This document shows, one piece after another, positions 7,827 through 52,326 of a stretch of 64,000 nucleotides of DNA (within the stretch, counting starts at the first letter, position 1; each line of letters starts with the position of its first letter). Source of the stretch: an uncultured Caldithrix sp. (GTDB lineage Bacteria > Electryoneota > AABM5-125-24 > Hatepunaeales > Hatepunaeaceae). The notes under the pieces were generated by a model that was given only the letters and a program-made list of their open reading frames with translations, made no database searches and was not told the origin of the DNA. The position numbers were made by a program, and so were the translations under genes. The stretch is from the NCBI GenBank assembly GCA_964355675.1, contig CAYHEC010000010.1, forward strand, positions 41,160 through 105,159. The letters run 5' to 3'.

Positions 7827-7837
7827 TCGATAATCTC

Positions 7838-8851: not shown

Positions 8852-8870
8852 AATTGTAATTCCTTCCTTT

Positions 8871-9266: not shown

Positions 9267-9777
9267 CCCCGCGCAAGCGCGCCGGGACGCCAGCGACAAC
9301 TGCATGAGCTTCGACACTTTTTGTGACGACGGCTCCTGCGCCAATCATTGCATTCTCTCCAATAGTAATGCCTGCCAGAATTACTGCTCCAGAGCCAATC
9401 GAAGCGCCTCTTTTAATTCTTGTGGGAATTACAACCCAGTCAGCCTCAGTCTGAAGTTGTCCCTCGGAAGTAGCGCGTGGAAAAAGATCGTTGATGAACA
9501 TAACTCCGTGTCCAACAAAGACATCATCTTCAATAGTTACTCCTTCGCAGACAAACGTGTGTGAGGATATCTTGCAACGGGCTCCGATAAAGGCGTTTTT
9601 TTGAATCTCGACAAAAGCACCAATTTTGGTTTCATCACCAATTTGGCATCCATATAGATTAACCAGCTCGGGTTGAAATATGCGAACGTCCTTTCCGAGT
9701 ATGACGTTGTTACTTACGGGCATAGATTGACTCCATTGGTTTATAATAAAGTGGTGCACATCTTGTGATGCGCTCAA
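9244..9777 (-). CDS. Hexapeptide-repeat (left-handed beta-helix) sugar N-acetyltransferase (WbpD/WlbB-like)
   Basis: Repeated [LIV]-G-x-x-x-x hexapeptides ('IGAGAVVTKSV', 'IGSGAVILAGITIGENAMIGAGAVV'); ~175 aa; adjacent to DegT and Gfo/Idh/MocA genes. Confidence 0.85.
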   Translation of the reverse strand: MSASQDVHHFIINQWSQSMPVSNNVILGKDVRIFQPELVNLYGCQIGDETKIGAFVEIQKNAFIGARCKISSHTFVCEGVTIEDDVFVGHGVMFINDLFPRATSEGQLQTEADWVVIPTRIKRGASIGSGAVILAGITIGENAMIGAGAVVTKSVEAHAVVAGVPARLRGDVRNRAK

Positions 9778-27611: not shown

Positions 27612-29699
27612 TTATCTAAATAGTAGCGAATCTATTTTTTGCGGTATCCTCCGGATACGCTTATATAATTTTCCATGTCTAATAGAACCATATGATAAAC
27701 CAAACCCTATATATTTCTGCGCAGGCACGCCGATCTTGTTGGATATTTTAGCATAATTTAAAATTGCCGTCGCGTGTTCTGCTAAACCTACCGACCACTT
27801 TCCGCCATCCCATTTAAGGTCTGTGCGGCAACCTTTTTGTTCAAATGCATTTGCCAGCTTGGGTTCGCGATTAATGTAGTACGAGATAACATATTCGAAA
27901 CTTTCCGGGTTCAGCCAAATATTGGGAGGTACATTACTCAAATCATTTAGTTCCTTGGCTAATTTCTCAGTAATTTGCCAATCTGATATAAACCGATAAT
28001 AACTCCTGCCTTTATTGTTATCGAGAATGTCGCGCTTTTTCTGCAAAGGTATTGTGCTTAAAATCGACTCATTTACAGTCGCAACCAATTGCAAGGCGGA
28101 AATAATTGATGTCTTAGTTAATTCCTCCAGTATGCGGTATTTGTTTTCGTCCATCGTAAACCATTCTTGCCTCAAGTTATCCACGAGAGCCGACGAATGT
28201 TCATGTTTATTTTCTACCGAAATACCAGACCGTTCAGCAAGTGAATAAGTGTATTTAAGACTATTTAACATACAAAGAAGGACTCGAATCCGGACGGGAC
28301 TACTATACGCAATCCAAATTATGTCATGCGGTATTTTTACTAATAAGTAATCTACCAACATACCGAAAAAGGCGCCTTGCGAAACTGACGACGATGAAAC
28401 ATCGCCTAAGTCTATTCCAGAAAGAAGCCTATAATTAAATATAGGAAATAGCTTTGGGAGTATTCCAATAGCACCTTCCGTGCAGACGTATGGTGGATGC
28501 GTCATGAGTAATCGAACCCATTGAGGAAAGTTTTCAGGCTTGTAATTTTGCCAGGTCAATTTCACATCGTCTGGGTACACAATCAAATAATCAAGGTCGG
28601 AAATGCCAGGTGCACCAACTTGTCCAATTTGATATATTGCAATCGGTTTTGGGGCAAGTGAGTTCCAGAATTTCGTTACAAGTTCAGTCGTTTCTTGATA
28701 ACGTTGGTCTTGAATTTGAAGAGGTAGATCAGTTACCGGGCGAGAGAAAACACGTGGACCAGGTTCCTTGGGAGCGACATCTCGTATTTTTGTTTGCATG
28801 CTATGGAGTAATGCAAGTACACGTCGCGGGAAATCTTCTCCTAAAACATTTTGAACATCGATGACTTGCTTACTATTTCGAGAATTCCGTCTTGCAATCT
28901 TTTGTAATAACGATGGACGATGAATTTGGAGCGCAAACCAAACTAATATCCGTGATGGCTTATGTCGCGGCCCAAGAGTTGCCCTTAAATTTGTCGCTAA
29001 TACTATTGGTTCCCATTCTTCTTTCGTGAAGTATTTTTCTGCGATAGGGAATGTGTCCCTTTTGTATCTAAATTCTCCTGTCATACGTTGGAGAAATAAG
29101 GCTGGTAAAATCATCAGATTCCCCAAGCAGTGTTCCACATCGTAATAATCTCTCATCATAAATGGTTTCGAACTCCAAGCATTGAAGTAACCAGAAAACA
29201 TTACAAGCATGGAATCTGTAATTTCGTTGGAAGGTACGACCATCACTTCGATTGGATCATTGGATTCAAAAAGATCAACGCCATAATTAAAGAGTATCAG
29301 TGGAAATTTCGCTTCTGGATAAGAGGACAACTCGCTTTGCATTAGATAATAGGGTTCATGATGCATAAAAGGATCGAAGGCATAAGTTAAGGCAAGAATC
29401 TCGCTACGAAGCTTATTATACTTACTCTGCATTCGCGTATCTGTTAAAGTCGAATCCTTCACAATAAACGTCAAATCTAAGTCGCTAAATCCTTCAACAT
29501 CATCAAGTGTCGCGACACTTCCATGAATAATCGCCCGTAAAAACAGATCTTTGTTTTGGTTTGCCAATTTATGCAACTTCCATACGGGCCAATATTTTGA
29601 CTGGCTGCCACCTCTGTCAAGCCATGATTGATAATTTGTGCCAGATGGAACTTGATGGATCATAATCTGTTTATCAGACTTATTCAACTTGCTTGCCAT
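27612..29699 (-). CDS. Uncharacterised protein with two Pol-beta-like nucleotidyltransferase-fold motifs
   Basis: 695 aa; 'HGSVATLDDVEGFSDLDLTFIV' and 'IGQVGAPGISDLDYLIVYPDD' both fit the G[GS]-x(9-13)-D-h-D-h nucleotidyltransferase signature; no closer family recognised. Confidence 0.4.
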   Translation of the reverse strand: MASKLNKSDKQIMIHQVPSGTNYQSWLDRGGSQSKYWPVWKLHKLANQNKDLFLRAIIHGSVATLDDVEGFSDLDLTFIVKDSTLTDTRMQSKYNKLRSEILALTYAFDPFMHHEPYYLMQSELSSYPEAKFPLILFNYGVDLFESNDPIEVMVVPSNEITDSMLVMFSGYFNAWSSKPFMMRDYYDVEHCLGNLMILPALFLQRMTGEFRYKRDTFPIAEKYFTKEEWEPIVLATNLRATLGPRHKPSRILVWFALQIHRPSLLQKIARRNSRNSKQVIDVQNVLGEDFPRRVLALLHSMQTKIRDVAPKEPGPRVFSRPVTDLPLQIQDQRYQETTELVTKFWNSLAPKPIAIYQIGQVGAPGISDLDYLIVYPDDVKLTWQNYKPENFPQWVRLLMTHPPYVCTEGAIGILPKLFPIFNYRLLSGIDLGDVSSSSVSQGAFFGMLVDYLLVKIPHDIIWIAYSSPVRIRVLLCMLNSLKYTYSLAERSGISVENKHEHSSALVDNLRQEWFTMDENKYRILEELTKTSIISALQLVATVNESILSTIPLQKKRDILDNNKGRSYYRFISDWQITEKLAKELNDLSNVPPNIWLNPESFEYVISYYINREPKLANAFEQKGCRTDLKWDGGKWSVGLAEHATAILNYAKISNKIGVPAQKYIGFGLSYGSIRHGKLYKRIRRIPQKIDSLLFR

Positions 29700-36792: not shown

Positions 36793-38067
36793 TTATTTTA
36801 AACTTAAGCTCCAATTTGTCCCACCCAGAACACAGCTAAAATGCCTCGCTACTGCGCCATAGCGTGCCATTGTGGAACCGGTTTCTATGATGTTAAAACT
36901 TGAAACATTTTTACGTGTATCAATGCTTAGCTTGTTTGGATTGTGTGCAGAAATATAAACAGTATACATGTCAGGGACAAGAAAGTTCTCCCTTATCCGA
37001 ATGGTTGCTTGATACAAACCGGGCTTAAGTTCCACAAACGCCTTATTATTTCCATCAGATAAACTACTAAATAATACATTAACATCATTAGAATTAGATA
37101 ACATAAAAGTGATTTCAGTATCTGTAGTGTGGCGCAATACTCTGAATTCAAGTCCAATCATAAACGGATTCAGAACATCTATATCCGCGCTCAGATTACC
37201 TTGATGGTCAGTTATCCAAACTTTTGTAAAGGATACGTTGGCGTCCAATTGAGGAACCAACGTAACAACTTTAGTTGTTTCTACTCTTTTATCAGTTATA
37301 TACTGGCTTATAATATCAGATACTACTCCAGTACCAGATATTCTGCCATTATCAAGTAATATCGCTTGAGTACACAATGACCGTACCGCTCCCATATTAT
37401 GACTCACAAACAGCACCGTCCGACCCTCGTGCGCGACTTCTCCCATTTTCCCAAGGCATTTTTTCTGAAACTCAACATCGCCAACGGCGAGTACTTCGTC
37501 AATAACAAGTATCTCCGGGTCCAGATGCGCCGCCACCGCGAATGCCAGGCGCACCTTCATGCCCGACGAATACCGCTTGACAGGAGTATCGATAAATTGC
37601 TCAACGCCGGAAAAGTCAACAATCTCATCGAACTTTCTGGTCACTTCAGCTTTTGTCATTCCAAGGATCGCGCCATTCAGAAATACATTCTCCCTACCCG
37701 TCAATTCCGGGTGAAATCCAGTCCCGACCTCAAGCAAAGCCCCGATTCGTCCTTTTATCTTGATCTCACCTGAGGTTGGCGCAGTTATATGTGAGATGAT
37801 TTTTAATAATGTTGACTTACCAGAACCATTCTTGCCGATAATGCCGAGTACCTCACCTTGATTAACTTCAAAGTTTATATCGCGCAACGCCCAGATGTAT
37901 TCGCCGCTCTTGTTGCCATGATCCATCTCGCCGATTTTTAGCAGTGGGTCAGGTTTGCCTCTCGCTCTCGCCCACCAGCGACTAAGGTCTCCTGACAATG
38001 TACCTCCCCCGATAAGTCCCAATTTATAGAACTTAGAGAGGTTTTCGACCTTGATAACGACACTCAT
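36793..38067 (-). CDS. ABC transporter ATP-binding protein for glycan export (Wzt/TagH/KpsT-like) with C-terminal extra domain
   Basis: Walker A 'GKNGSGKST', signature 'YSSGMKVRLAFA', Walker B 'ILVIDEV'; ~180-aa C-terminal extension as in Wzt carbohydrate-binding domains. Confidence 0.9.
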   Translation of the reverse strand: MSVVIKVENLSKFYKLGLIGGGTLSGDLSRWWARARGKPDPLLKIGEMDHGNKSGEYIWALRDINFEVNQGEVLGIIGKNGSGKSTLLKIISHITAPTSGEIKIKGRIGALLEVGTGFHPELTGRENVFLNGAILGMTKAEVTRKFDEIVDFSGVEQFIDTPVKRYSSGMKVRLAFAVAAHLDPEILVIDEVLAVGDVEFQKKCLGKMGEVAHEGRTVLFVSHNMGAVRSLCTQAILLDNGRISGTGVVSDIISQYITDKRVETTKVVTLVPQLDANVSFTKVWITDHQGNLSADIDVLNPFMIGLEFRVLRHTTDTEITFMLSNSNDVNVLFSSLSDGNNKAFVELKPGLYQATIRIRENFLVPDMYTVYISAHNPNKLSIDTRKNVSSFNIIETGSTMARYGAVARHFSCVLGGTNWSLSLK

Positions 38068-38107
38068 TGCGCGCTCAACAGGTCGATGATTGCAGTTACT
38101 ATGCCGC

Positions 38108-38959
38108 TCAAATTGTGTCCTCGAAAGTCCGTTCGACGCGGTTAAACAACGAGATTCCGATCAGAAGGATAGTGATAGACATCACAGCGCTATAGGAAAG
38201 ATAAATTAAATCAGCTTTACCGGCTCCTAAGAAGGCATAACGGAAAGTCTCGATCACTGGCGCCATCGGGTTGGCAACAACAATCCACTTGTATCGTTCG
38301 GGAATGCTCGACACCGGATAAATCACTGGCGTCGCATACATGAACAGGTGAATTCCAAAAGTCACCAAAAATCTTAAATCGCGGTAACGAATCGTCAACG
38401 AGGAGACGATTATGCCTAAGCCCAATCCGAGACTACCCATGATGATCAGAAGAACGGGAGTAAGTAAAATCCAAATATTCGGAGATACGCTGGCTCCGTT
38501 GATCAGAAAATAGATGAGAAAACCAATGAAAAAAAGGAACTGAATTCCGAAGGCTATAATATTAGAAATTACAATACTTACAGGCATTACGAGCCGTGGG
38601 AAATATACTTTGCCGAAGATGGCGGAATTTGCAAGAAATGTTTCCGCTGATTTGGTGATAACATTTGAGAAGTATGTCCAGGCGACCGTGCCAGACATAT
38701 AGAAAAGGAAGGGCGGCAGTCCATCAGTGGATAACTTCGCAACCTTGCCGAATATAATAGTGAACACTACGGACGTCAACAACGGCTGAATTATGTGCCA
38801 GAGCGGGCCGAGAATTGTCTGTTTGTACTGCGCCACAAAGTCGCGCCGCACAAATAGCGATACCAAATCTCTGTAGCGCCACAATTCTTTAAGACGAAGA
38901 TCAAACCACTTGCCCCGTGGCTGAATTACCGTCGTCCACTCAGTCTGGGTTTCCATCAT
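38108..38959 (-). CDS. ABC-2 type permease for glycan export (Wzm/TagG/KpsM-like)
   Basis: 283 aa, six hydrophobic segments, 'RDFVAQYKQTILGPLWHIIQP' N-terminal motif typical of ABC-2 permeases; adjacent to the ATPase. Confidence 0.85.
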   Translation of the reverse strand: MMETQTEWTTVIQPRGKWFDLRLKELWRYRDLVSLFVRRDFVAQYKQTILGPLWHIIQPLLTSVVFTIIFGKVAKLSTDGLPPFLFYMSGTVAWTYFSNVITKSAETFLANSAIFGKVYFPRLVMPVSIVISNIIAFGIQFLFFIGFLIYFLINGASVSPNIWILLTPVLLIIMGSLGLGLGIIVSSLTIRYRDLRFLVTFGIHLFMYATPVIYPVSSIPERYKWIVVANPMAPVIETFRYAFLGAGKADLIYLSYSAVMSITILLIGISLFNRVERTFEDTI

Positions 38960-39088: not shown

Positions 39089-39970
39089 TTAGTTTTCCAC
39101 ATCATAAGTACTCAGTATATTTTCTAATTCTGATAGAAGTTGTCGTAATGAATCGAGAGAGTCATAACGAAGACTTATGCGGTTTTTAAAGATGTGGACA
39201 GAATCATTAGCTTTGGCGAATTGTTTTAGTTCGGGCAGGACATCCCATTTCTCGTTTGGGTTCCTCTTTTGTTTGCGACGGATAATTTCGTCATCGATCA
39301 ATTGCTTGAATTGCTCCAAGTCAAGGCTGGCGCCTCTCAAGATCAGCTTTGCCCTAAGGCGCTCAATAGGAATCTTCGATAATGCCAGCGCTTTCTTCAA
39401 TGAAAGGGTCTTGTCGGCGATTGCCTTTTTCAGGTCCGCTGGTAGAAGCAAGAGTGATAAGCGATCATTCACAAAAGACGCAGACTTACCGATTTTGGTG
39501 GCAATATCCCGGTAGGTTAATCCAAGTTGTTCGATTAATTGCTTGATGGCTCTGGCTTCCTCCATCGGTTCCAAGTCAGAGCGTTGCAAGTTCTCTATCA
39601 GGGAATATAGAAGGAAATCTTCTTGTGACAGATCTAACACAATACAAGGAACAGCTGTCAATTCTGCGCGCTTGGCCGCTTCCAATCTACGGTGACCAGC
39701 AATCAGAATATAGTGCTTGCGACCTTTGCGAATAACCAGCAAAGGCTCAAGGACCCCAACGTCTTTTATTGAGGCGGTGAGCTCATCAAGCGAGCGTTGG
39801 TCGTTCTCAACCCGTAGTGGAAATGAATTGGGGTAAAGAAATCCAATCGGCATCAGTTGGGCGTTCTGAAGAGGTTCAGGTTTGTTCGATGGAAGAGTTT
39901 GACCGAACGCTTCATGAAGTTCAGGCGCCTGCAGACCTATTGCAGGATTGTTATCAGGGTCGTAAGGCAA
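39089..39970 (-). CDS. ParB/Spo0J-family protein (ParB N-terminal CTP-binding domain + HTH), orphan
   Basis: 'LEPLLVIRKGRKHYILIAGHRRLEAAKRA' (GxRR box) and HTH-like 'LTYRDIATKIGKSASFVNDRLSLL'; no ParA gene in the window. Confidence 0.8.
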   Translation of the reverse strand: MPYDPDNNPAIGLQAPELHEAFGQTLPSNKPEPLQNAQLMPIGFLYPNSFPLRVENDQRSLDELTASIKDVGVLEPLLVIRKGRKHYILIAGHRRLEAAKRAELTAVPCIVLDLSQEDFLLYSLIENLQRSDLEPMEEARAIKQLIEQLGLTYRDIATKIGKSASFVNDRLSLLLLPADLKKAIADKTLSLKKALALSKIPIERLRAKLILRGASLDLEQFKQLIDDEIIRRKQKRNPNEKWDVLPELKQFAKANDSVHIFKNRISLRYDSLDSLRQLLSELENILSTYDVEN

Positions 39971-40418: not shown

Positions 40419-43400
40419 ATGAAAACGATCACTGGAATGCTACTCGCAGTAGTTCTTGTTTTGGTGGTGCCGCAGTTCGGTTTCGCCAGAATAATCAACG
40501 TCCCCGAAGAAAATCAGACTATTCAGGCGGCTATTAATACTGCAGAAGCAGGAGATACCGTTCTGGTTCAGCCGGGAATATACGGTGAAAATATTCTTTT
40601 TAACGGAATCGATATTGTCGTTGGCAGTCTGCTCCTGACGACCGGCGATCATGCTTATATCGACTCGACAATTATTGATGGAAACGCCAGCGCATCGGTT
40701 GTTAGAATCCGTACTGGTGAAACTGATGCTACTGTATTAACAGGCTTTACGATTATTAACGGCAGAGCAAATTATGGCGGCGGAGTTTATATTAACGCCG
40801 CCAGCCCGACACTCGATCATCTCATTATAACTCGAAATCACGCGATCAGAGACGGCGGCGGGATTTACTGCACGCATAACGCCAATCCCATTTTTAAACA
40901 TTTGACCGTGTCAGCCGATACTGCCGAACGGAGTAACGGCGGTCTGTTTACCTTTGATAATTCTTCAGCCACTATAATCAACTCCATCTTCAGGAGTAAC
41001 ATCCCTATCGGAACTCCTGCAGGACAAACGATTACCTTTTCCAACATTCAAAATGGTTACGCCGGACAGGGCAATATAAACAGTAATCCCCTCTTCGTCG
41101 ATCCGGGAAATGGTAACTTCCATCTGCAAGAAAATTCGCCGTGTATCGACGCTGGCGATCCGAATTCGCCTCCCGATCAAGATGAGTCTCGCGCTGATAT
41201 AGGGGCTTTTTATTTTGACCAGACTCCCTATCCGCGTATAGTTGCCTCGCATGACTCATTGGACTTCGGAGGCGTTCTTCCCGGTGCAGAACTTGCCAGA
41301 ATAATTACAATTATTAATCAAGGCGACGCCGACCTAATCGTTCAGCATCCCACGACCGACGGCGAACCTTTCCATGCCGATCCGGAGGATTGGGAGTCCG
41401 TTACTCTCGAACCGTTAGATACGCTCGAAGCCGAAGTTTTTTTCGCTCCAACCGAAATCGGGGATTTCGTGGGGCATTTCATCATCGAATCAAATGACCC
41501 TGATAACGAGACTCTTGATATAATACTCATCGGAAGTGGTGCTGTCCCGATCATAGCCGTAGCTTCTGATTCGCTTGATTTTGGTGTTGTTTTAATTGAT
41601 AATAGCTCCGAACTGCCTCTCGTCGTGAGCAATAATGGGGGAGCCGATCTGACAATAAGCGACGCCAGCGTTCAAGGAGATAACTACTCGATTGATTTTG
41701 GTGGTGAGTTTACCGTTCATCCCGATGAATCTGCTGAGATAATTGTCACATTTTCCCCGTCAGAAGCAGGCGGCTTCGATGGGGAAGTCACGATCACTTC
41801 TGATGATCCAGAGAATGCCGAAATGACTGTGGCCCTGGTCGGAGTCGGCAGAGAGCGAACCATCACAGAATTAGGGGCAATCGATACGCCGGGACAAGCG
41901 CTGGGAGTTGCTATCGTTGGATCTCTTGCACTCTTGTCCGACGGTCAGGGCGGTCTTCGAATAATCGATTATTCCGATCCTGCTAATCCTGCCGAAATTA
42001 GCTCCATCGAAACGCCGGGCAACGCCAGAGATATTGTTGTAGTAAATGGTTTAGCTTTTATCGCTGATGAGGAAAGCGGGCTGAGGATGATTGATTTCTC
42101 CGATCCCGAGCATCCTGCCGAAGTCTGGACGTTCGACACGCCCGGTCGGGCTTATGGAGTTGCGGTTGTTGGTTCGTTTGCTTATGTAGCCGATTACGAG
42201 GGAGGGCTCCGTATCGTAGATATTTCTGACCCCGAATCTCCCCATGAAGTAGGGGCATCCGAAACGAACGGCAATGCTCGAGCGGTAGCCATACTCGGTG
42301 ATTATGCGTACATAGCCGCGGAAGAGGGTGGCTTGGAAATAATCGATATTTCTGATCCGGAAAGTCCCCACCGAATTGGTTCTGTCGAAACTCCGGGGAG
42401 TGCCTATGGAATTATAGCTCGGGGAGGTTATGTTTATGTGGCCGATGGAGATAATGGTCTTTGTGTGATCGATGTTTCCACACCTGCTAACCCATCAGTA
42501 ATTACCAGCTACAACACGCCGGGGATTGCGTCCAACGTCACATCGACAGGTGAATTGATCTACGTTGCTGATTCGACCACTGGTATTCAAGTGATTAATA
42601 TAGCTGATCTTGAAAATATTGAAACGGTTGGTACATTCAACACGCATGCCGAAGCTTGTGATATTGCCATTCTTGGCGACTACTGTTTCGTCGCCGATGG
42701 AGAAAGCGGACTTCATGTATTGGACGTCTCGGAGATTGCTCAATACCCGGTTGTTTCCGTCACCCCAGAGGCGCTGAGGTTTCAGCGTACCGTTACCGGC
42801 TATAGTTCAGATATCACGTTGACAATCCATAATCGCGGTAATTGTACGTTGAATATTTTCGCGGTAGCGGTCGAGGGAAATTACTTCGAAAGTGAAATCG
42901 CAAATCCGGTGGCGATTGAGCCAATGGAGAGCTATGATTTGGCAGTTACTTTCACTCCGGAAGAAGCCGGCGATTTTGCTGGAACGCTAACAATTATTTC
43001 GGATGATCCATACCAACCTCACAAGCAAATCTCGTTGTCGGGAAGCGGGCTGGTCTTTGATCTTATCGAAGAGACCGGTTCACTCTTAGAGTTTTTCGCC
43101 GGAACTGAAGATGGATGCGCGTATGACAACTGGGTAAGCCATATCTCCGAGGGGGTTGCCCGAGACGGTTACAACGAATACTGTCCTCCGGAACTTGACC
43201 GGCAGACGAACGGCTTCGGCTCATTTACGATAATCGATAGTCTCGAAAATCCGGACGAAATAACCGCGAGTTGGTATGAGATATTTTCCAGCCTGTATCA
43301 TGGGGACATCGAAACCGCACGCGTAACCCTTGCTCTATCAAGTTTCAGCGATAAGTATCAGATAGTTCGTCTCGAAGATGGTGAGAAGAACTATGTAATC

Positions 43401-46400
43401 TTGAGAGAAAACCTGAATAATGAATACTTTGATGACAATGGTACTCAGGACGCCGCCGATGACGTTCGCGGGTCGTTCGACTTGGGATGGGGGTTGTTTG
43501 TCTTCGATCTTGACCCTTTCACGCCGGATGTTATCATCGAAGTACCTCACCCGGAAGACGATTTTCTTGCTCCTCCATCTGGGATCGATGCATTTTTTAC
43601 GATTGGCGCGAGAGCGCTCTTCGTAGCAGGAGCCGGTCGTGAAGTCAGCTGGACCGGTGAGGGAAACTATACAAATCTGAAGTCATTTTCAGATCCTACA
43701 CGCATTGAGGGTAGTGCTTTCAATCAAGCACATAAAGCGGGGGTGGACTTGATTGATCAGGAATTTGTCATCCAGATTCACAGTTACGACAGCGAATCGC
43801 ATCCCACTTTGATGCCCGCCGAACTTTCCACACGGCTCGACTACTATCCTAATCGCCCAGTTCTGGATTTTGAGAATCACTTCGATATCGTAAGTCTCAC
43901 GCCGGAGATTCCGGTTCCCGCCAATTCAACTGGACATGAAAACCACGATTCGCTACGGGTCGATGATTTCTATGCTGTCTGGTATGATATCGACGTCTTA
44001 GGTACTTATCGCTATCACAATCGCTTGGATATATCGAACGACGTGGTGATGTTCGCATCGAGCATGAATGAACAGATGCTTTACTCGATGGCTGGCCATG
44101 ATACTCTGCGGGACGATGAAAAATGGCTTCATGTCGAACAGGACGAATTTCCAAATGTCATTACTGAGGATATTCTAAACTATTATAGCGCTGGCGGAGC
44201 TATGACCTACCATAATTTCAGCCCAGCAGTTCAGTTTTACCGCCCGGTGTACACGGCGGTAAGAAACTATTACCATCATAGAACCCTGCATAACGTTCCT
44301 GATGATTATCAGACAATCCAGGCCGCTGTTGACGCTTCAGTCAGTGGAGACACAGTGCTGGTTCAGCCCGGGACTTACGTTGAAACCGTCAACTTCAAGG
44401 GCAAAGACATCACGGTGGGAAGCCTCTTCCTGAACACCGGAGACCAAGCCTACATAGAATCAACTATCATAGATGGCAACCGCAACGGCAGTGTGGTGAG
44501 ATTTGACAGTGGTGAGACCAATAATGCCTTGTTGACCGGATTCACTATTCGAAACGGTTCCGGTTCCATCGATGCTGAAAATGACATCAGCGGCGGGGGG
44601 ATACATTGCCACAACGCATCGCCCCGTCTGAATTATCTCAAAATTGTTAACAATAATGCCTGGTATGCCGCGGGTATTTATTGCGAATTAGGTTCCGATG
44701 CGATTATCGATCATTGTCTGATTACTAACAACGTCGCCGCTATTGCTGGTGGTGGTATGGATTGCTATGCCGCCAGCCCCACCATGAGCAACTGTACCAT
44801 TGCGGATAATCAGGCAATCAGGGGAGGCGGGCTCTACCTATTCGATGGCTGTAATCTGACTATTACGAACAGTATCTTCTGGAATAACGCTCCGCAAGAA
44901 CTTCTTTATTCACTTAGCGGAGTTCCCGATACGGTTATATTTCAGTACACTGACATTATGGGTGGTGAGCGTCGAGTCAACACTCACCGTAACGGCGCTG
45001 TCATCTGGGGAGAAGGCAACATCGATCAGGATCCCCGATTTGTTGCCCCTGAGGAGGGTGACTACTCTCTAAGCGAAGGAAGCCCCTGCCAAGACGCCGG
45101 AAATCCTGGCGATACACGTGATCCCGATGACACGTGGATCGATATGGGAGCGCTCTATTCTCCTTATGAGCGAGACAATCAGCCGCGCATGGTTGTTAAT
45201 TCTAATAGATTTGGCTTCGGAACTGTCGAAGTCGGGCAGAACCTTCACTTGATATTGCAGATTCACAACACGGGCTATGCCGCTCTTACGGTTTCAGAGA
45301 TGAGGCTATCAGGAGATCATCCCGACGACTTCAGCGCAGACTTCGGACAGGAGTTAACGGTCGATCCCGGTCAGATTCGCAACGTCACATTGACATTTGC
45401 CCCCGGCGATGCAGGTCGTCGAGAAGCCAATATGGTCGCCACAAGTAATGATCCGGTGCAGGCAGAGACTCAAATGGCACTTGGTGGATTCGGATTAATC
45501 CGTGGAGATCGTCATTTATGGATTGTTCCGGATGACCTTGAAAGAATTCAGGAAGCTATTGATATATCAGTCGATGGCGATACTATTCTCGTTAGATCGG
45601 GTGTTTACCAGGAGAATATCGATTTTTCGGGCAAAGCGCTTGTAGTAGGTAGCTTCTTCCTGACCGATCGTGACCCGGAATTGATCACAAATACCGTTAT
45701 CCGAGGCGACAACAGCGGCGGAGTGGTTTCTTTCATCAGCGGAGAGGATACGAACTCTGTATTATCAGGATTCACAATAACGGGTGGGCAAGATGGAGTT
45801 TACAGCGCGTCTTCAAATCCAACTATAAGTTATTGTGTTATAAATAGTAACGCGGCAGTGAACACCGGCGGCGCGGGATTGTACTGCCGCGGTGGCGCTT
45901 CGCCAAGCCTTCTTAACTGTACTTTGGTTGATAATTCAGCTCGATGGGGCGGTGGTATGTACATTCGAGAAGGAAGTGGCGTCACCTTGACCAACTGTAT
46001 TGTTTGGGCAAATGATCCAAACACAGTTTACTCATCGGGTAACGGCGTAAGAAATCGACTTTCGGTGGATCACTCGAATATTGAGGGTGATCGACAGGGG
46101 GTTGTTACCAACAATAATTGTCAGGTCACCTGGGGCGAAGGCAATATCAACACAGATCCTCTGTTTGTTGATTTGGGTAATGGAGACTTCCGTCTGGGAG
46201 CCAACAGTCCCTGCGTCGATGCAGGCAATGCCAATTCGCCGCTCGATGCCGACAGCACCCGCGCCGATCTTGGCGCTCTTTACTATGACCATCGGACGCC
46301 TCGTATCGCTGTGGAGCCTGCCGAGCTCGATTTTGAACTGACAAGAATAGGCGAATTGTCAGAGAAAGAGATAGTTATCTTTAACAGGGGTGTTGCTGAC

Positions 46401-48908
46401 CTGACCGTTACAAATCTCCCCATAGAAGGCGAATACTTCTCTTGCGATTTCAGGCAGGAACTCGTGATCCACCCGGATGACTCTACCGTTGTCACTGTAG
46501 CCTTCATACCTGAGGTGCAAGGCGATTTCGAAGCTGTTCTGACGATTTTGTCCGATGACCCTAACAATTGGGCGATTCCTGTTCGTCTTCATGGTGTTAG
46601 TGGGAGCCAACCACCGGAAATCATCAGCGAGATAGGAGATCTGTCCTACCCAGAAGACTCTGGTCCCTGGACAATCGCCGATCTCGATACGGTCTTCAAT
46701 GATCCGGAGGGAGATAACCTGACTTTCAGCGCTATAGCGCCTGACCCGTTGACGGTGTTAATTGGGAACGAAGATCATGTCTTGGTTCTTGAAGCGCCCG
46801 CCAACTTTAACACCGAAGGACTCGAAATTCAAGTTACCGCATCGGATAGTATTGGCGGAAGACGGGTGATGATAATAAGGACTTTACGCGGAACCGCTAA
46901 TCAAATGGTACGGCTTACAGATTTAGGCTCAGTACAGCCGAAAGATGTCGGCAGTACCAATGAAGGAATTAATTCCTCATCGACCCCATTCAAAATTCAC
47001 CAGATCAGTCGCGATGGATCAGCAGAGGATATATTTACGCTTGTTATAGAACCAATCAACGATGAACCAGTGTGGGTGAATTACCCGCAAGAGATCATCC
47101 GAGTCGAGAGTGGTGGCGTTATCGAGTTTGTAGTAGTAACGGAAGACGTCGATGGTGATCGGTTGAATTTGAGGATGATTGGCAACGATCTCCCGGATGA
47201 AGTCCAGTTTGTCGTAACTGAAAATGGCCGAGGTCGCTTAAATTGGCAAACCACAATTGAAACGGTTGGTCATTTTGAAGTAGTCCTGTCGGTTTCTGAC
47301 GGTGCGGTTTCGTCGGAGATCACTGTAAACGTGATTGTCATCCACCCGCCTCAGCACTTCACGGAATTTGACCAGACAGAGCAAAGCCACAATTTGCATG
47401 TAACAGGCGTCTCAATCAACGGTGACCCGGTCTCTGCTGGCTGGGAAGTCGGCGTCTTTACGCCTGCCGGTGTTTTGGCAGGTGGGGACGCTTGGACGGA
47501 AGTTGAGATGGATCTGCCAGTCTGGGGCGCTGATGACAACCATCAGGATTATTTCCACGAAGGCGAGACAATGAGTCTCAAGTTGTGGGACTACCAAGCT
47601 GATGCGGAGTGGGATGGTGGGGCAGTGGTCGAAGAAGGTGAAATGAATTGGGTGAATAACGGCAATACCGTTCTTACTGTCGAAAGCAACAGCCTAAAAA
47701 CATTGGAAGTAGCCATGCGTCTGGGCTGGAAACTGATTTCGGTCAACGTGATCCCATCCGATCAGGATTTCTGGGCTGGCGACCCCGGTCCTGAAATTGT
47801 TCCGATGATGTCCCAGCTCCGCCGTCCGAACAACGGAGCACATCATCTAATTCTGATGAAGGATGAGCGTGGGCGGTTCTATATACCGGAACGTGGTTTC
47901 GGCAATATGTCTTATTGGAATCTCGCAGAGAGCTATCAGGTTCGTATCGACTCCGCTATGTCGGCATTCTGGACAGGAACGCCGATCAATCCACAAGCCG
48001 ATGTTCCGATTACCCGTGGTTGGAATTATATTGCTTACTTTCCGGATTATCAACTTTCTGCGTACAGCAGAGATGGTTGCTATGTGTTATCGCCGATCAT
48101 CGATCACGTTCTCCTAGCCAAGGACGGCCTTGGTAACTTTATGATCCCGTCACGCGGATTCTTCAGCAATATGCCGCCATGGCGGGAAGGACAGGGCTAC
48201 CAGATCAATGTCGATCAAGATGTTGTCCTGAATTACCCACAAGCACAGAATCAGGCCGCGGCATTGTCAGTCGATCCTGAGTCTGTCAAGGGTCGTTGGG
48301 CCGATGTACCTTCGACCGGTGCAAACATGAGCGTGTTGGTCACCAAGGTATCGGGCGTCGATCTTTCGACTTCCGACCAGGTTGCCGCGTTCAGCCCGTC
48401 CGGTCTTATGGTTGGCGTAGGCCGAGTAATCGATGGACAGATTGGTATTGCAGTCTGGGGCGACGACGCCTCAACCCAAGCGGTGGACGGCCTGAAAGAC
48501 GGCGAAGCGTTCACGCTGAAGTTGTGGAATGCCGCTGAAGACGTAGTTGTCGATCTTAGTTCGCGGGTTATCGAAGGCGACCGCCTTGTCTATTTGACAG
48601 ACGGTTTCACGGTAATCGACGCGTCTGTAACGACAGCACTTCCGACCGAGTTCTATCTCAGTCAGAACTACCCGAACCCGTTCAATGCAGTGACTCGTGT
48701 AGCCTTCGGCTTGCCGGAAGCATCACGTGTGACGGTTCGCGTGTTCGATCTGTCTGGACGTGAAGTATCGACGTTGGTGAGTGGTGAGCTTCAGGCTGGC
48801 CATCACAGTGTCGTGTTGGATGGCGAATCGATGGTATCGGGCGTTTACATCGTCAAGATGGAAGCGACGAACTTCAGCGCCGTTCGTAAAGTAATGCTCG
48901 TGAAGTAA
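40419..48908 (+). CDS. Giant secreted multidomain surface protein: signal peptide, three parallel beta-helix (Pmp/pectin-lyase-like) modules, Ig-like domains, LVIVD beta-propeller, T9SS C-terminal sorting domain
   Basis: 2829-aa uninterrupted ORF; signal peptide 'MKTITGMLLAVVLVLVVPQFGFA'; module 'VP..QTIQAA...GDTVLVQPG.Y.E...F.G.DI.VGS' occurs three times; GGG[IV]Y / F..N repeats; C-terminal 'NYPNPFNAVTRVAFGLPEASRVTVRVFDLSGREV...SGVYIVKMEATNFSAVRKVMLVK'. Confidence 0.85.
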   Translation: MKTITGMLLAVVLVLVVPQFGFARIINVPEENQTIQAAINTAEAGDTVLVQPGIYGENILFNGIDIVVGSLLLTTGDHAYIDSTIIDGNASASVVRIRTGETDATVLTGFTIINGRANYGGGVYINAASPTLDHLIITRNHAIRDGGGIYCTHNANPIFKHLTVSADTAERSNGGLFTFDNSSATIINSIFRSNIPIGTPAGQTITFSNIQNGYAGQGNINSNPLFVDPGNGNFHLQENSPCIDAGDPNSPPDQDESRADIGAFYFDQTPYPRIVASHDSLDFGGVLPGAELARIITIINQGDADLIVQHPTTDGEPFHADPEDWESVTLEPLDTLEAEVFFAPTEIGDFVGHFIIESNDPDNETLDIILIGSGAVPIIAVASDSLDFGVVLIDNSSELPLVVSNNGGADLTISDASVQGDNYSIDFGGEFTVHPDESAEIIVTFSPSEAGGFDGEVTITSDDPENAEMTVALVGVGRERTITELGAIDTPGQALGVAIVGSLALLSDGQGGLRIIDYSDPANPAEISSIETPGNARDIVVVNGLAFIADEESGLRMIDFSDPEHPAEVWTFDTPGRAYGVAVVGSFAYVADYEGGLRIVDISDPESPHEVGASETNGNARAVAILGDYAYIAAEEGGLEIIDISDPESPHRIGSVETPGSAYGIIARGGYVYVADGDNGLCVIDVSTPANPSVITSYNTPGIASNVTSTGELIYVADSTTGIQVINIADLENIETVGTFNTHAEACDIAILGDYCFVADGESGLHVLDVSEIAQYPVVSVTPEALRFQRTVTGYSSDITLTIHNRGNCTLNIFAVAVEGNYFESEIANPVAIEPMESYDLAVTFTPEEAGDFAGTLTIISDDPYQPHKQISLSGSGLVFDLIEETGSLLEFFAGTEDGCAYDNWVSHISEGVARDGYNEYCPPELDRQTNGFGSFTIIDSLENPDEITASWYEIFSSLYHGDIETARVTLALSSFSDKYQIVRLEDGEKNYVILRENLNNEYFDDNGTQDAADDVRGSFDLGWGLFVFDLDPFTPDVIIEVPHPEDDFLAPPSGIDAFFTIGARALFVAGAGREVSWTGEGNYTNLKSFSDPTRIEGSAFNQAHKAGVDLIDQEFVIQIHSYDSESHPTLMPAELSTRLDYYPNRPVLDFENHFDIVSLTPEIPVPANSTGHENHDSLRVDDFYAVWYDIDVLGTYRYHNRLDISNDVVMFASSMNEQMLYSMAGHDTLRDDEKWLHVEQDEFPNVITEDILNYYSAGGAMTYHNFSPAVQFYRPVYTAVRNYYHHRTLHNVPDDYQTIQAAVDASVSGDTVLVQPGTYVETVNFKGKDITVGSLFLNTGDQAYIESTIIDGNRNGSVVRFDSGETNNALLTGFTIRNGSGSIDAENDISGGGIHCHNASPRLNYLKIVNNNAWYAAGIYCELGSDAIIDHCLITNNVAAIAGGGMDCYAASPTMSNCTIADNQAIRGGGLYLFDGCNLTITNSIFWNNAPQELLYSLSGVPDTVIFQYTDIMGGERRVNTHRNGAVIWGEGNIDQDPRFVAPEEGDYSLSEGSPCQDAGNPGDTRDPDDTWIDMGALYSPYERDNQPRMVVNSNRFGFGTVEVGQNLHLILQIHNTGYAALTVSEMRLSGDHPDDFSADFGQELTVDPGQIRNVTLTFAPGDAGRREANMVATSNDPVQAETQMALGGFGLIRGDRHLWIVPDDLERIQEAIDISVDGDTILVRSGVYQENIDFSGKALVVGSFFLTDRDPELITNTVIRGDNSGGVVSFISGEDTNSVLSGFTITGGQDGVYSASSNPTISYCVINSNAAVNTGGAGLYCRGGASPSLLNCTLVDNSARWGGGMYIREGSGVTLTNCIVWANDPNTVYSSGNGVRNRLSVDHSNIEGDRQGVVTNNNCQVTWGEGNINTDPLFVDLGNGDFRLGANSPCVDAGNANSPLDADSTRADLGALYYDHRTPRIAVEPAELDFELTRIGELSEKEIVIFNRGVADLTVTNLPIEGEYFSCDFRQELVIHPDDSTVVTVAFIPEVQGDFEAVLTILSDDPNNWAIPVRLHGVSGSQPPEIISEIGDLSYPEDSGPWTIADLDTVFNDPEGDNLTFSAIAPDPLTVLIGNEDHVLVLEAPANFNTEGLEIQVTASDSIGGRRVMIIRTLRGTANQMVRLTDLGSVQPKDVGSTNEGINSSSTPFKIHQISRDGSAEDIFTLVIEPINDEPVWVNYPQEIIRVESGGVIEFVVVTEDVDGDRLNLRMIGNDLPDEVQFVVTENGRGRLNWQTTIETVGHFEVVLSVSDGAVSSEITVNVIVIHPPQHFTEFDQTEQSHNLHVTGVSINGDPVSAGWEVGVFTPAGVLAGGDAWTEVEMDLPVWGADDNHQDYFHEGETMSLKLWDYQADAEWDGGAVVEEGEMNWVNNGNTVLTVESNSLKTLEVAMRLGWKLISVNVIPSDQDFWAGDPGPEIVPMMSQLRRPNNGAHHLILMKDERGRFYIPERGFGNMSYWNLAESYQVRIDSAMSAFWTGTPINPQADVPITRGWNYIAYFPDYQLSAYSRDGCYVLSPIIDHVLLAKDGLGNFMIPSRGFFSNMPPWREGQGYQINVDQDVVLNYPQAQNQAAALSVDPESVKGRWADVPSTGANMSVLVTKVSGVDLSTSDQVAAFSPSGLMVGVGRVIDGQIGIAVWGDDASTQAVDGLKDGEAFTLKLWNAAEDVVVDLSSRVIEGDRLVYLTDGFTVIDASVTTALPTEFYLSQNYPNPFNAVTRVAFGLPEASRVTVRVFDLSGREVSTLVSGELQAGHHSVVLDGESMVSGVYIVKMEATNFSAVRKVMLVK
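41880..42735 (+). repeat. Seven tandem LVIVD-type repeats (beta-propeller) within the giant protein
   Basis: Recurring ~40-aa unit 'TPG.A.GVA..G..AY.AD...GL.I.D.SDP..P' seen seven times. Confidence 0.7.
48651..48905 (+). other. T9SS (Por secretion system) C-terminal sorting domain of the giant protein
   Basis: Final ~85 aa begin 'FYLSQNYPNPFNAVT' and end 'KVMLVK', matching the conserved type-A CTD pattern. Confidence 0.8.
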
Positions 48909-48929
48909 AGAAGTAGTAGCTCAAGCAGT

Positions 48930-48951
48930 GGGGCGGATTGCAATCCGCCCC
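48930..48951. terminator. GC-rich hairpin between convergent genes (candidate bidirectional terminator)
   Basis: GGGGCGGAT-TGCA-ATCCGCCCC, 9-bp perfect stem with 4-nt loop, 22 nt after the giant gene stop; no clean U-tract. Confidence 0.4.
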
Positions 48952-48988
48952 TACGGCAATTCAATATTCTATCGAATTCAACTTAATA

Positions 48989-50485
48989 TTAGAAATTATG
49001 GGAAATCATTAGCTGGTGAAATCCGCCTCCATAGGGAGCGCTGGCTCCTCGAGTCGTTGGCGCAGGCGACGCCGCGGGTAAACTGCGACGCCAGGTTTTT
49101 ACCGGGATTAATTGTGTGAATTGGTAGCTGACCCCTAATCCAATTAGAGTAGTGGAAATCTCAAGCTGTGGAATGCATCCCAAAATTCGGCGAACCGGAA
49201 GTTCGGAGTGTTGCAAATCATCTTGACCGAAGATCAGGAATTCAGGTCGCCAATGTTCGAGCGTAGCTTTTGGCCGAACATCGAACAGATGCGTTCCGAA
49301 CGACCATCTGAAAATATCGTTGCCTGCTTCAGATTTAAATCTGCTGAAGTGGGCTAAATAAAGTCTCCAAAGCGTCCCTTCAGAAGAGGTAATGAAGTAT
49401 CGCCTCATGCCGAGTAAATCAATAAATCCACTGGTGAAGGGCCAGAACTCTATGTGTCCCCGGCTTGCCGCGTCCCATTGAAAATACTCCAGTTCACCCT
49501 TCATCGACCGCGACGCCAATTTAGATAACTCACTATCAAACCCGGCAAAAATAGTTCGGACGTCAGTATCGAAACGGGTGATCTTGGCAAAGGATGACCC
49601 TCCCTCCAGTCCGCGAGCCTGAAGGCGCGACACATGCCCGCGACTCCCGACCCAAAACAAGTGACCTTCCTTCCCATATTCGATTGCCGCCCGATAATTT
49701 TTCACGATTCCAGTCGGTTCAAAGTTTGGAATAGGGGACATTTTATCAGGTGATCGAAGGCTACTCTGACTATATGAGGCGACGGCTTTAAAACCTCTCA
49801 GCTTGGGTGTGCGCAGAGAAATGCCATAAGTATCGTAGGATAGTGGTAGCTCGACTGCGGCGTTCTCTTCCTGCCAATCTCCTGACAGCCTCCATAAATC
49901 ACTCTGCCGCCGCCACCTGAATGTTACCCCACCGTCGCGATATGCCAACAACCTGCCGGCAATATCGAAACCAGCCGGATTGCTATAATTGTTGACGTCG
50001 GACTTTAACGTGACGTCTGCTTCCGCTCGGACAGCTAACTTCGACGTGGCAACACTGCCAGCAATCCCAAGCTTGGCTCCTTCAATATCGATGTGAATGA
50101 TTTGCTGAGCGAGACGTTGTTGGAGTTTCATCGACGTTCGGCTTGCAGAAGTTCCGACTTCGAGAGTCCAATCTGCCATCCCTTTTCTGCTGACAAACGC
50201 CTTCCCAAGAACCCTTCTGCCGAAGGATGCGCTCGGCCTCTCGATAGCGCCTTGACGGTAATAATCTGAATAGGTCGAAAAGAGAGAGAACCCTCCGGTC
50301 AGCCGCGAGCGGCCAACCGGAGGGTCTGTGACATTTGAATTGGGAAGACGATGCAACTCTGCCTCTGTCATCCATACGGATTCGTGTGTGGTCAGCAGGT
50401 AGTCGATGAAGGGATCAATCGTCAATGCTGACAAATTGCTCGCGGTCAAAAGCACCGCACCAAGCGCAATAATCAGCAGTGGCAA
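48989..50485 (-). CDS. Secreted protein, probable outer-membrane beta-barrel, function unknown
   Basis: N-terminal signal-peptide-like 'MPLLIIALGAVLLTASNLSA'; alternating amphipathic strands with many aromatic residues; no catalytic motif. Confidence 0.4.
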   Translation of the reverse strand: MPLLIIALGAVLLTASNLSALTIDPFIDYLLTTHESVWMTEAELHRLPNSNVTDPPVGRSRLTGGFSLFSTYSDYYRQGAIERPSASFGRRVLGKAFVSRKGMADWTLEVGTSASRTSMKLQQRLAQQIIHIDIEGAKLGIAGSVATSKLAVRAEADVTLKSDVNNYSNPAGFDIAGRLLAYRDGGVTFRWRRQSDLWRLSGDWQEENAAVELPLSYDTYGISLRTPKLRGFKAVASYSQSSLRSPDKMSPIPNFEPTGIVKNYRAAIEYGKEGHLFWVGSRGHVSRLQARGLEGGSSFAKITRFDTDVRTIFAGFDSELSKLASRSMKGELEYFQWDAASRGHIEFWPFTSGFIDLLGMRRYFITSSEGTLWRLYLAHFSRFKSEAGNDIFRWSFGTHLFDVRPKATLEHWRPEFLIFGQDDLQHSELPVRRILGCIPQLEISTTLIGLGVSYQFTQLIPVKTWRRSLPAASPAPTTRGASAPYGGGFHQLMISHNF

Positions 50486-50498
50486 TGCCTTAAACAGA

Positions 50499-52118
50499 TC
50501 AGTTTCCCATGCCGAAATCTTTCTGCCAATCTTCCTCAGTAAAACCCATAATCCGCTTCAAACGGCTGTCGGTCATACCGGGCAGAAGTCCACCTACCGT
50601 CGGGTTGGGAAAAATCCACTCAGCATAGCTATTAGCCTGCCAGGTGATATGCGGCGAATACCTCCACTTGGTTGACTCATTATATTGGCAACTTATGTTA
50701 GCCATCACATTTTGAACGCCAGCATCCAACCACCAGCCGTTAAAACTAATACGGATATAGGCATTGGATTTAGAGCTGTATTGCGCCACCCAACGGTCGA
50801 ATTCTATATCCCATGCCGGTGCGGGGAATGATTTTTCCTCACGGTATTCCTGCAATTGACCATTGTCATAATAAGCATAGCGACTCCAATAGTAAACGCC
50901 CGATGTGGGAATTTCTACTCCTGCCACTACCTGAGAGTCGATATAGTGATACTCCGTCTCTGACTCCACCGTGTCGAGGGTGACGCTGTAAGCGGGTAAC
51001 AGGGACTTCAAATCATTGACCGGGTGGTTGAACATTGCCGAAAGAGCGATAGCAAGGTCTTCGTCACCATCGCCAAAATCAACCTTGAATGTCTCTTGTC
51101 CCGTCAGAGCGCGCCGTACACGCGGGATGTAGGCTTTCAGAGAGTCAAGATCGGCGTCGTTATCGTGGTCCAATTTAATCAGGTCATTGTCTTGATCATC
51201 GGTTTCGCTCTCAAGGAAAGCGACGCCGCTTTCTACACTGTTCGCCGCGTCGAGCCAGGCTTGCCCGGCGGCTCCCATACGGATTGCCCCACTGGAGCGA
51301 AGCGCCATAAACGGCGAACCTTGGGTCAGCGCGACCCGCATTGCATTGCCGGTCCAGTCGCCCATATCATAGCTGTAGGCACAAAACTGGTTCAACAGCG
51401 CGAGCTGTACATCGACAGCAGTGATGGCGGCATAGATCTCGGTCAGGTCGAGCTCCAATGCATCTTCGTTGGGATCGCCCTGCATGCGTGGGGTAATCAT
51501 GAACTTGAAGTCAGGATGAGAAGTGATTTTTTTCAGCCTCGCAACGGCCCACTCAAGACGCGGAATCAGTTCGCTTGCCAGCAGATCCTGAAACTCCCCG
51601 ATGGTCGGATCACCCGCGGCGGCCGCTCGACTCATATTGGTTTCCATTCTCAGTACAGCAGAGATGGGCAGAACCGTCTCGGTAAGCCGGAGCGATAGTC
51701 CTGGGCCTGGTCTGGGAGCTCCCGCCATACCCGGTACTTCGAAGAAGGCGCCGCTATCCATAAAAGTCTTGGCGCGATCGAAGAAATCTTGAAAATCATG
51801 ATCCTGACTGATCATAATGATTTCCAGCACCCCTGCTCCAAAGTTGGCGGCTGGATTGGAGTCATCTGCTTCGAGGGCTTTCATATAAGCACTGTAAGGA
51901 CCGGTCAAGTCAACATCATCAGGCTTTTCCGGATTCTGGCCGTTGATTAGATCCATAAGGACGGCTTCAAGCTGAGTGTTGCCAGTCCCGACCCATGCAT
52001 TTGCGGCGGTGGTATCAGTCGGCGTTGAGACAGTTGGATTATCTTCGCCGCATCCAATAGTTAAAGCCATCCCGACGAAGAATACGATTGCGATTGATAA
52101 ACGAGTTATTGCAGACAT
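50499..52118 (-). CDS. Lipoprotein, function unknown
   Basis: Internal Met at 52118 gives 'MSAITRLSIAIVFFVGMALTIGCGEDNP' with lipobox L-T-I-G-C; track ORF extends 52 codons further upstream. Confidence 0.5.
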   Translation of the reverse strand: MSAITRLSIAIVFFVGMALTIGCGEDNPTVSTPTDTTAANAWVGTGNTQLEAVLMDLINGQNPEKPDDVDLTGPYSAYMKALEADDSNPAANFGAGVLEIIMISQDHDFQDFFDRAKTFMDSGAFFEVPGMAGAPRPGPGLSLRLTETVLPISAVLRMETNMSRAAAAGDPTIGEFQDLLASELIPRLEWAVARLKKITSHPDFKFMITPRMQGDPNEDALELDLTEIYAAITAVDVQLALLNQFCAYSYDMGDWTGNAMRVALTQGSPFMALRSSGAIRMGAAGQAWLDAANSVESGVAFLESETDDQDNDLIKLDHDNDADLDSLKAYIPRVRRALTGQETFKVDFGDGDEDLAIALSAMFNHPVNDLKSLLPAYSVTLDTVESETEYHYIDSQVVAGVEIPTSGVYYWSRYAYYDNGQLQEYREEKSFPAPAWDIEFDRWVAQYSSKSNAYIRISFNGWWLDAGVQNVMANISCQYNESTKWRYSPHITWQANSYAEWIFPNPTVGGLLPGMTDSRLKRIMGFTEEDWQKDFGMGN

Positions 52119-52326
52119 TGTTACCTCATGTAATAATTTGCACAAGATTGAGGTGTTTCTGTGATTGGATGTGCGACCAATTTCACAAGATTGCCTATAA
52201 AGGCCACCTCCGACGTTTAATATAAATACAATAGTTGAGGAACTCAAGTTGAAATCAAAAGAATCTAAAAACAAGTTAGTTAAGTGGCGCGATTTATAGT
52301 AATGATCAGGTCAAATTAGTGTAGTA

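Follow-up and report, generated by a model that had tools for sequence, protein, structure and literature searches.

A single gene in a 64,000-nt stretch of DNA from an uncultured Caldithrix sp. (assembly GCA_964355675.1, contig CAYHEC010000010.1, positions 41,160 to 105,159; the whole stretch analysed is hereafter called the window) encodes a giant modular protein of 2829 aa. With moderate confidence, we interpret it as a surface protein exported by a type IX secretion system (T9SS), in which binding modules are combined with a head, domain X, resembling zinc-dependent amidohydrolases and carboxypeptidases. Domain X (aa 880-1287, 408 aa; 43056..44279, +) matches no classified family, and is the sole domain of the protein with a catalytic-looking set of invariant residues. 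Together with aa 2065-2320 and 2325-2749, it makes up the approximately 1,100 residues (about 39% of the protein) that the first-pass annotation of this sequence had left undescribed. The source bacterium belongs to the Fibrobacteres-Chlorobi-Bacteroidetes (FCB) group and is most probably a member of the Calditrichota.

Under the interpretation favoured here, the protein would be exported by the Sec pathway through its signal peptide and would cross the outer membrane via a T9SS recognizing its type-A C-terminal sorting domain (CTD), with subsequent removal of the CTD and attachment of the protein to the cell surface or its release. Outside the cell, three CASH-type beta-helices and a seven-bladed LVIVD propeller may bind polymers or particles, with the Ig-like, cadherin-like and pre-CTD beta-sandwich domains acting as spacers and stalk. 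Domain X would cleave an amide or peptide bond beside a carboxylate, using His1044, Asp1047 (or Asp1048) and His1121 as candidate metal ligands and Glu1240 as putative general base, and Arg1074 and Arg1095 would hold the carboxylate of the substrate. Of this account, the analysis establishes the domain architecture, the families to which the domains belong, the fold of domain X and its pattern of conservation, whereas the route of secretion, the metal binding, the catalysis and the class of substrate are inferred.

Domain X: conservation, fold and distribution

Searches with domain X against Pfam (E<=1) and NCBIfam returned no match. An alignment of 35 members outlined 32 invariant columns, which include H1044, D1047/D1048, R1074-E1075, D1092/R1095, H1121, H1238, E1240 and D1242/E1243. 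The AlphaFold2 model of the domain is confident (predicted local distance difference test [pLDDT] 85, predicted template modelling score [pTM] 0.90) and locates the conserved motifs on its secondary structure. The PHPxDD motif lies directly after the strand at residues 156-163 of the domain and is followed by a helix, giving the succession central strand, H-x-x-acid, helix, with two Arg later. GAGRE follows the strand at 185-190 and SDPxR comes next, and the QxHSYD and HxExDE motifs lie inside the strands at 237-244 and 357-363, respectively.

In M14 metallopeptidases the site residues are H69/E72, R127, R145, H196 and E270, and carboxypeptidase A carries an IHSYSQ motif that can be compared with the QxHSYD of domain X. 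We take the invariant residues of domain X to occur in the same order as those of the M14 site. Structural relatives of the model include an FGase (N-formylglutamate amidohydrolase) family protein (2odf, score 13.3), an N-formylglutamate amidohydrolase (2q7s, 12.4), carboxypeptidase B (7eqx, 10.9) and the poly-gamma-glutamate hydrolase PghP (3a9l, 10.7), with YndL, succinylglutamate desuccinylase, MpaA and Csd4 scoring lower. As modelled, domain X shares the three-layer alpha/beta fold of the M14/FGase/PghP structural superfamily (Zn-dependent exopeptidase-like), and H1044, D1047/8, H1121 and E1240 map to secondary-structure elements equivalent to those of the two-His-plus-acid site and its general-base Glu, suggesting a putative metal site. 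At the level of family models, PF00246 (M14) did not match domain X even at E<=1, and no match to PF05013 (N-formylglutamate amidohydrolase) or DUF867 PghP was obtained in Pfam, NCBIfam or PDB sequences.

Domain X is a widespread family without a database model and is probably catalytic. A word-indexed search identified 64 homologues, mostly proteins of ~615 aa from Calditrichaeota, Cloacimonetes and unclassified metagenome-assembled genomes (MAGs). An exhaustive profile search (E<=1e-30) yielded 148 clusters at 50% identity, and 183 loci were confirmed in GTDB representative genomes (Calditrichota, Cloacimonadota, Marinimicrobia/Fidelibacterota and KSB1). In nearly all homologues the domain starts around residue 20, right behind the signal peptide, and the longer proteins that were sampled end in a T9SS CTD (PF18962), often preceded by Fn3 domains. 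A broader and more tentative proposal is that domain X typifies a hitherto undescribed family of secreted enzymes (metallo-amidohydrolases or peptidases) whose HxxD...H...E site would be built on the M14/FGase/PghP fold. In uncultured phyla of the FCB group (Calditrichota, Cloacimonadota, Marinimicrobia and KSB1) that are thought to degrade detrital organic matter, this family would provide type-IX-secreted proteins with their catalytic head; the pre-CTD module of T9SS cargo would in turn be a domain for binding or a stalk, rich in aromatic residues and specific to the lineage. Domain X is well conserved, lacks a database entry and is found nearly always at the head of secreted proteins in lineages represented only by metagenomes, and it would give annotators a model for several hundred proteins now designated 'hypothetical'. 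If active, it would add an enzyme family for inferring how sediment and digester bacteria degrade peptides or acidic polyamides.

The giant protein has an orthologue, P0104 (2845 aa, 60% identity), that is collinear with it from residue 1 to ~2210 at a constant offset of +2; the stalk then diverges, and the CTD is found at the end. Per-domain identity between both proteins reaches 72% in domain X and in the second beta-helix module (BH2), followed by the first (BH1, 67%) and third (BH3, 64%) beta-helix modules, the LVIVD repeats (57%), the Ig-like domains (47-55%) and the Big_9 domains (45%). These values point to tighter constraint on the presumed functional heads than on the spacers, and offer a clear case of head domains changing more slowly than the Ig-type spacers of the same chain. 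The Calditrichaeota protein P0001 presents the unfused form (signal peptide, domain X, beta-helix), and almost all other homologues likewise carry X at the N-terminus. This suggests that, in the giant protein, an adhesin-type block (aa 1-879) was joined to an already complete T9SS cargo headed by X (aa 880-2829), in a fusion that appears to be older than the split from P0104.

The invariant His, Asp, Glu and Arg residues of domain X, maintained in 35 diverse homologues and placed as in Zn hydrolases, make it unlikely that the whole protein, domain X included, is a purely structural or adhesive coat component, such as an adhesin or an S-layer-like fibre devoid of catalysis. Domain X is also among the two best conserved domains in P0104 and occupies the N-terminal head position in hundreds of secreted proteins, neither of which suits a purely structural role. 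A coat protein would nevertheless account for the bulk of the chain, which consists of modules usual in adhesins (Ig-like, cadherin-like, propeller and beta-helix), and for the resemblance of the pre-CTD module to pilin, CnaB and macroglobulin beta-sandwich arrays. It would also be compatible with the loss of GAGRE and HSYD in one of two tandem X copies of a Calditrichaeota protein, which implies that the fold can persist without these motifs.

This tandem arrangement was observed in a Calditrichaeota MAG (L001, 51-3626, +), in a 1192-aa T9SS cargo whose first X copy shows NGASRN and LHGFN in place of GAGRE and HSYD, which suggests a degenerate and possibly non-catalytic partner. In another homologue, P0301 (1584 aa), domain X is fused to PKD, a PGA_cap (CapA-like poly-gamma-glutamate capsule) domain and dockerin. 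Taken with the PghP-like fold of the model, this fusion is a weak hint, suggestive only, of acidic polyamide substrates.

Domain architecture and predicted surface export

The domain map of the giant protein was drawn from Pfam, NCBIfam and fragment-against-self BLAST searches. The protein begins with a predicted Sec signal peptide (aa 1-23; 40419..40487, +), MKTITGMLLAVVLVLVVPQFGFA, in which an n-region containing K precedes a hydrophobic core of 13 residues (with the stretch LLAVVLVLVV) and an AxA-like site, with cleavage predicted between GFA and the following R. Its 11-residue hydrophobicity peak of 3.6 and its cleavage site agree with the signal peptide proposed in the first-pass annotation, and a hydrophobicity scan detected no other transmembrane-like segment in the protein. 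In P0104, the equivalent signal peptide ends in LWA and is followed by RVINVP.

Three diverged beta-helix modules, as the first-pass annotation had described, are distributed along the chain: BH1 (aa 25-270; 40491..41228, +), BH2 (aa 1288-1585; 44280..45173, +) and BH3 (aa 1698-1955; 45510..46283, +). They share 44-64% pairwise identity and are predicted, on the basis of family models and this identity, to adopt a right-handed beta-helix fold. The Pfam Beta_helix model (PF13229, cut-off 25.9 bits) matches BH2 (2.1e-11, 44.2 bits) and BH3 (2.8e-13, 50.2 bits), and BH3 also matches DUF5123 (6.8e-7). BH1, which appears CASH/NosD-like with a DUF5123/choice-of-anchor-Q-like C-terminal cap, has weak Pfam matches of its own (DUF5123, 3e-5; Chlam_PMP, below cut-off) and was counted as a beta-helix because it is 64% identical to BH2 over the first 89 aligned residues and 50% over the whole-module alignment (46% and 44%, respectively, for BH3). 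The Pmp-like nature previously attributed to the repeats falls below threshold: the chlamydial Pmp repeat model (PF02415) reaches 16.8 bits, versus a cut-off of 20.6, for one repeat in BH1 only.

The beta-helix modules invite a different reading of the protein, in which all three would be pectate-lyase or GH28-like enzymes degrading an extracellular glycan. We consider this polysaccharide lyase or hydrolase rather unlikely. None of the CAZy-type models of catalytic families scores above its cut-off, and a profile of the three modules recovered no lyase, hydrolase or other meaningful match in the PDB. An AMA1 match of this profile in the PDB was rejected as spurious, as it falls on an expression tag. 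What speaks for such enzymes are sub-threshold matches to Pect-lyase_RHGA_epim (PF12708; E 0.022, 15 bits versus a cut-off of 27) and DUF1565, the association of DUF5123 with pectate-lyase-like proteins, and the better conservation of BH1-3 relative to the spacers. A search with the whole protein also recovered hundreds of giant FCB-group proteins with subsets of its modules, often annotated as choice-of-anchor D or parallel beta-helix repeat proteins, and some of the latter carry pectinesterase domains. The polysaccharide-active enzyme contemplated by the first-pass annotation hence finds no direct support, given that matches are restricted to the generic Beta_helix and DUF5123 models and that pectate-lyase and NosD models remain far below cut-off (TIGR04247, partial match to BH2, 47.8 bits versus 300).

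The beta-helices are interspersed with five Ig-like domains, for which the choice-of-anchor D model NF012200 identified five stretches (184 bits, cut-off 45), with additional matches to PF22544. The first two, of choice-of-anchor-D/HYDIN type (aa 272-372 and 377-477; 41232..41849, +), are delineated by NF012200, PF22544 and internal repeats; the third (aa 778-879; 42750..43055, +) by PF22073, PF15780 and NF012200; the fourth (aa 1589-1695; 45183..45503, +) by the best NF012200 stretch (aa 1591-1679) and CARDB; and the fifth (aa 1961-2060; 46299..46598, +) by PF12371, PF22544 and self-similarity. The 'ADL.V' motif that these domains had been said to share is present in only three of the five. 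Between the second and third lie the LVIVD repeats (aa 484-777; 41868..42749, +), identified by PF08309 (1.5e-62, 207 bits, cut-off 20.2). They comprise exactly seven 42-residue repeats in perfect register, the number anticipated in the first-pass annotation, and presumably form a seven-bladed beta-propeller. The fifth Ig-like domain is followed by two Big_9/cadherin-like domains (aa 2065-2320; 46611..47378, +), with PF17963 matching in two stretches (2.4e-9) and Cadherin_4 at 5e-4.

The protein ends in the putative sorting domain (aa 2751-2829; 48669..48905, +). Profile searches placed two curated type-A T9SS CTD models above their cut-offs at the extreme C-terminus (aa 2751-2826), TIGR04183 with 38.6 bits (cut-off 23) and PF18962 with 34.1 bits (cut-off 27), in line with the sorting domain that the first-pass annotation had assigned. 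The segment carries the motifs YPNPFN, SGVYIVKM and KVMLVK, and its profile weakly touches the RgpB CTD. The same residues match FlgD_ig (31.3 bits), leading to the alternative that the segment is merely a FlgD-like Ig domain, or that another sorting system operates in this lineage. T9SS have only partly been documented beyond the Bacteroidota, and a literature search on T9SS in the Calditrichota found nothing specific. We regard this alternative as very improbable, with both curated models above cut-off at the very end of the protein, canonical motifs in place and the same CTD terminating hundreds of related secreted FCB proteins. A T9SS has been reported as probably present in further FCB phyla, including Cloacimonadota and Fibrobacterota (PMC11285876). 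T9SS surface export, as proposed in the first-pass annotation, is supported at the sequence level by the Sec signal, by the type-A CTD that scores above cut-offs at the terminus, and by the choice-of-anchor domains, which typify sorted surface proteins. Near the P0104 orthologue we also observed a 134-aa gene (L081, 5342-5746, +) that encodes little beyond a T9SS CTD/FlgD_ig domain.

The segment preceding the CTD (aa 2325-2749, 425 aa; 47391..48665, +), which carries no annotation, is internally duplicated with an A-B-B'-A' arrangement, as evidenced by fragment-against-self BLAST, and is rich in invariant Trp, Tyr and Gly residues. Its predicted structure is confident and all-beta (pLDDT 88.7), with only generic beta-sandwich neighbours (pilin, CnaB and macroglobulin beta-sandwich arrays) in the PDB. 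Nearly all of its 37 homologues present PF18962 immediately downstream and vary in their N-terminal parts (LVIVD, Big_9, Exo_endo_phos, Ig); those with a named source are from Calditrichota. We read this pre-CTD module as a lineage-specific, aromatic-rich stalk or binding module adjacent to T9SS CTDs.

Several observations weigh against the interpretation of the giant protein as a T9SS-exported surface hydrolase. The beta-helix modules match generic models only, and family scans of the proteins in the window revealed no T9SS component genes. Phmmer and two profile searches against PDB sequences detected no similarity between domain X and a characterised hydrolase, and matched only the Fn3 domains of its homologues. 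The first metal motif of domain X is H-P-E-D (HxxD), whereas that of M14 is HxxE, and an hhalign comparison of domain X with Escherichia coli MpaA returned a probability of 0.06. Because this comparison finds nothing, we view the relationship of domain X to M14 as fold-level kinship and not as family membership.

The gene and its genomic neighbourhood

The giant gene is a single unbroken open reading frame (ORF) at 40419..48908 (+), with an ATG start. It is the sole long + strand ORF within a run of - strand genes, as the first-pass annotation had noted, and the chance of such an 8.5-kb open frame at 45-50% GC is (61/64)^2829, or ~1e-59. An identical protein (P0102) is encoded on a 132,883-bp contig at NCBI, and a variant with nine differences (P0222) is found in an ENA assembly; the neighbouring Wzt gene was also located in ENA (ERZ4201064) on a matching contig, and NODE_526 of that assembly encodes the variant. 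With an identical protein and a close variant in public assemblies, the giant ORF is a real gene and not an assembly artefact of the window. It has an upstream region of its own (448 bp), and a GC-rich hairpin, GGGGCGGATTGCAATCCGCCCC (48930..48951), lies 22 nt past its stop and separates this stop codon from that of the next, convergent ORF. From its sequence, and in spite of lacking a T-run, this hairpin could be a putative terminator.

Upstream of the giant gene, the - strand encodes a ParB/Noc-like protein, Wzm and Wzt. Downstream, two - strand ORFs convergent with it (48989-50485, 498 aa; 50499-52274, 591 aa) lack Pfam and NCBIfam matches, the second showing a lipoprotein-type LTIGC signal, and occupy the stretch of highest GC in the window (0.51-0.52). 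Both were considered as partners of the giant gene and discarded, no counterpart being present near P0104. Further downstream lie GT2/GT4 fusion glycosyltransferases and a DegT aminotransferase. The surrounding glycan cluster (6729-9777, 12191-13702, 17438-21080 and 36793-38959) encodes a WbpB/WbpE/WbpD-like triad (a WbpB-like dehydrogenase, a DegT aminotransferase and an LbH acetyltransferase), an AsnB/eps_aminotran_1 (WbpS-like) amidotransferase, NeuC, a PseF-like gene product, a protein with an O-antigen-ligase domain, and Wzm/Wzt.

This setting raises the question of whether the giant protein is coupled to the flanking lipopolysaccharide (LPS)/O-antigen-type cluster, either anchored through a glycan made by the Wbp-like genes or remodelling that polysaccharide. 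In Porphyromonas gingivalis, T9SS cargo is attached to anionic LPS (A-LPS) through a sugar produced by the Wbp/Vim pathway (PMC7468200), and WbpB-like, DegT, LbH and WbpS-like genes, an O-antigen ligase domain and Wzm/Wzt are all encoded in the cluster. Such sugar genes are, however, common in any O-antigen locus, and the giant gene lies on the opposite strand, with a separate upstream region and a GC content above that of its flanks. Furthermore, P0104 is located beside a GH94-type protein and a lectin-Ig protein, unlike the giant gene. Given that a collinear orthologue sits in a different neighbourhood, the flanking glycan genes are probably incidental. We therefore deem the coupling quite improbable and a functional tie to the cluster unlikely; of the association implied in the first-pass annotation, the position among glycan genes stands and the functional link is weakened.

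Other features of the locus were also recorded. The ParB/Noc-like gene (39089-39970, -; TIGR00180, 124.7 bits) immediately precedes Wzm/Wzt and points away from the giant gene, which is an unusual location for a partition-type protein. GC ranges from 0.49 to 0.52 across positions 42000-52000 of the window, versus 0.37-0.45 in most of the flanking cluster; amino-acid composition could account for the raised values in the giant gene and the two ORFs that follow it, as could a foreign origin. A mobile-element origin of the giant gene was considered in view of its higher GC and the adjacent ParB-like gene. The giant protein is strongly acidic (D 8.3%, E 6.1%, D+E 14.4%) and contains hardly any lysine (K 1.0%; R 3.9%). 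Within the cluster, two ORFs (103-1554, - and 1779-3422, -) have no Pfam or NCBIfam match, a third (16031-17422, -) has no NCBIfam match at E<=1e-10, and a fourth (27612-29699, -) has no family among the precomputed Pfam matches for L084.

Comparison with known systems

Giant modular T9SS cargo is abundant in FCB-group genomes, and by itself this example changes little. Like type-A T9SS cargo such as RgpB, Flavobacterium SprB/RemA-type adhesins and multimodular CTD hydrolases, the giant protein starts with a Sec signal, continues as an extended modular passenger and ends in a CTD of ~78 aa (TIGR04183/PF18962), and it mixes adhesive and putative enzymatic modules on Ig-like spacers. Unlike known cargo, it belongs to a lineage resembling Calditrichota for which T9SS is not known to have been studied; its passenger unites an LVIVD propeller and three beta-helices with a hydrolase-like domain that no family model covers, and a lineage-specific 425-aa module precedes its CTD.

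Domain X presents no sequence similarity to FGase (PF05013; 2q7s, 2odf) or PghP/YndL (3a9l, 5onj). It is approximately twice their size and carries an additional helical/hairpin subdomain at its N-terminus (aa 1-150 of X), and, unlike these enzymes, it is secreted and fused to surface modules. With respect to the M14 metallocarboxypeptidases (carboxypeptidase A/B/T, MpaA and Csd4), the HxxD motif in place of HxxE and the lack of a PF00246 match do not support membership in the family, and any parallel with their site would be one of mechanistic analogy only.

The beta-helix modules resemble those of CASH/NosD-type surface proteins in opening with an ...IQ.AI....GDT[IV]L[VI]..G.Y cap and closing with a DPLFVD...GDF.L...SPC.DAG motif. 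In common with choice-of-anchor proteins, the giant protein carries Ig-like domains of choice-of-anchor D type and a propeller of LVIVD/choice-of-anchor-B type, but it differs from NosD and choice-of-anchor B proteins themselves, both models falling far below cut-off. The triplication of the beta-helix in one chain, interleaved with domain X, is specific to the giant protein and its orthologue P0104.

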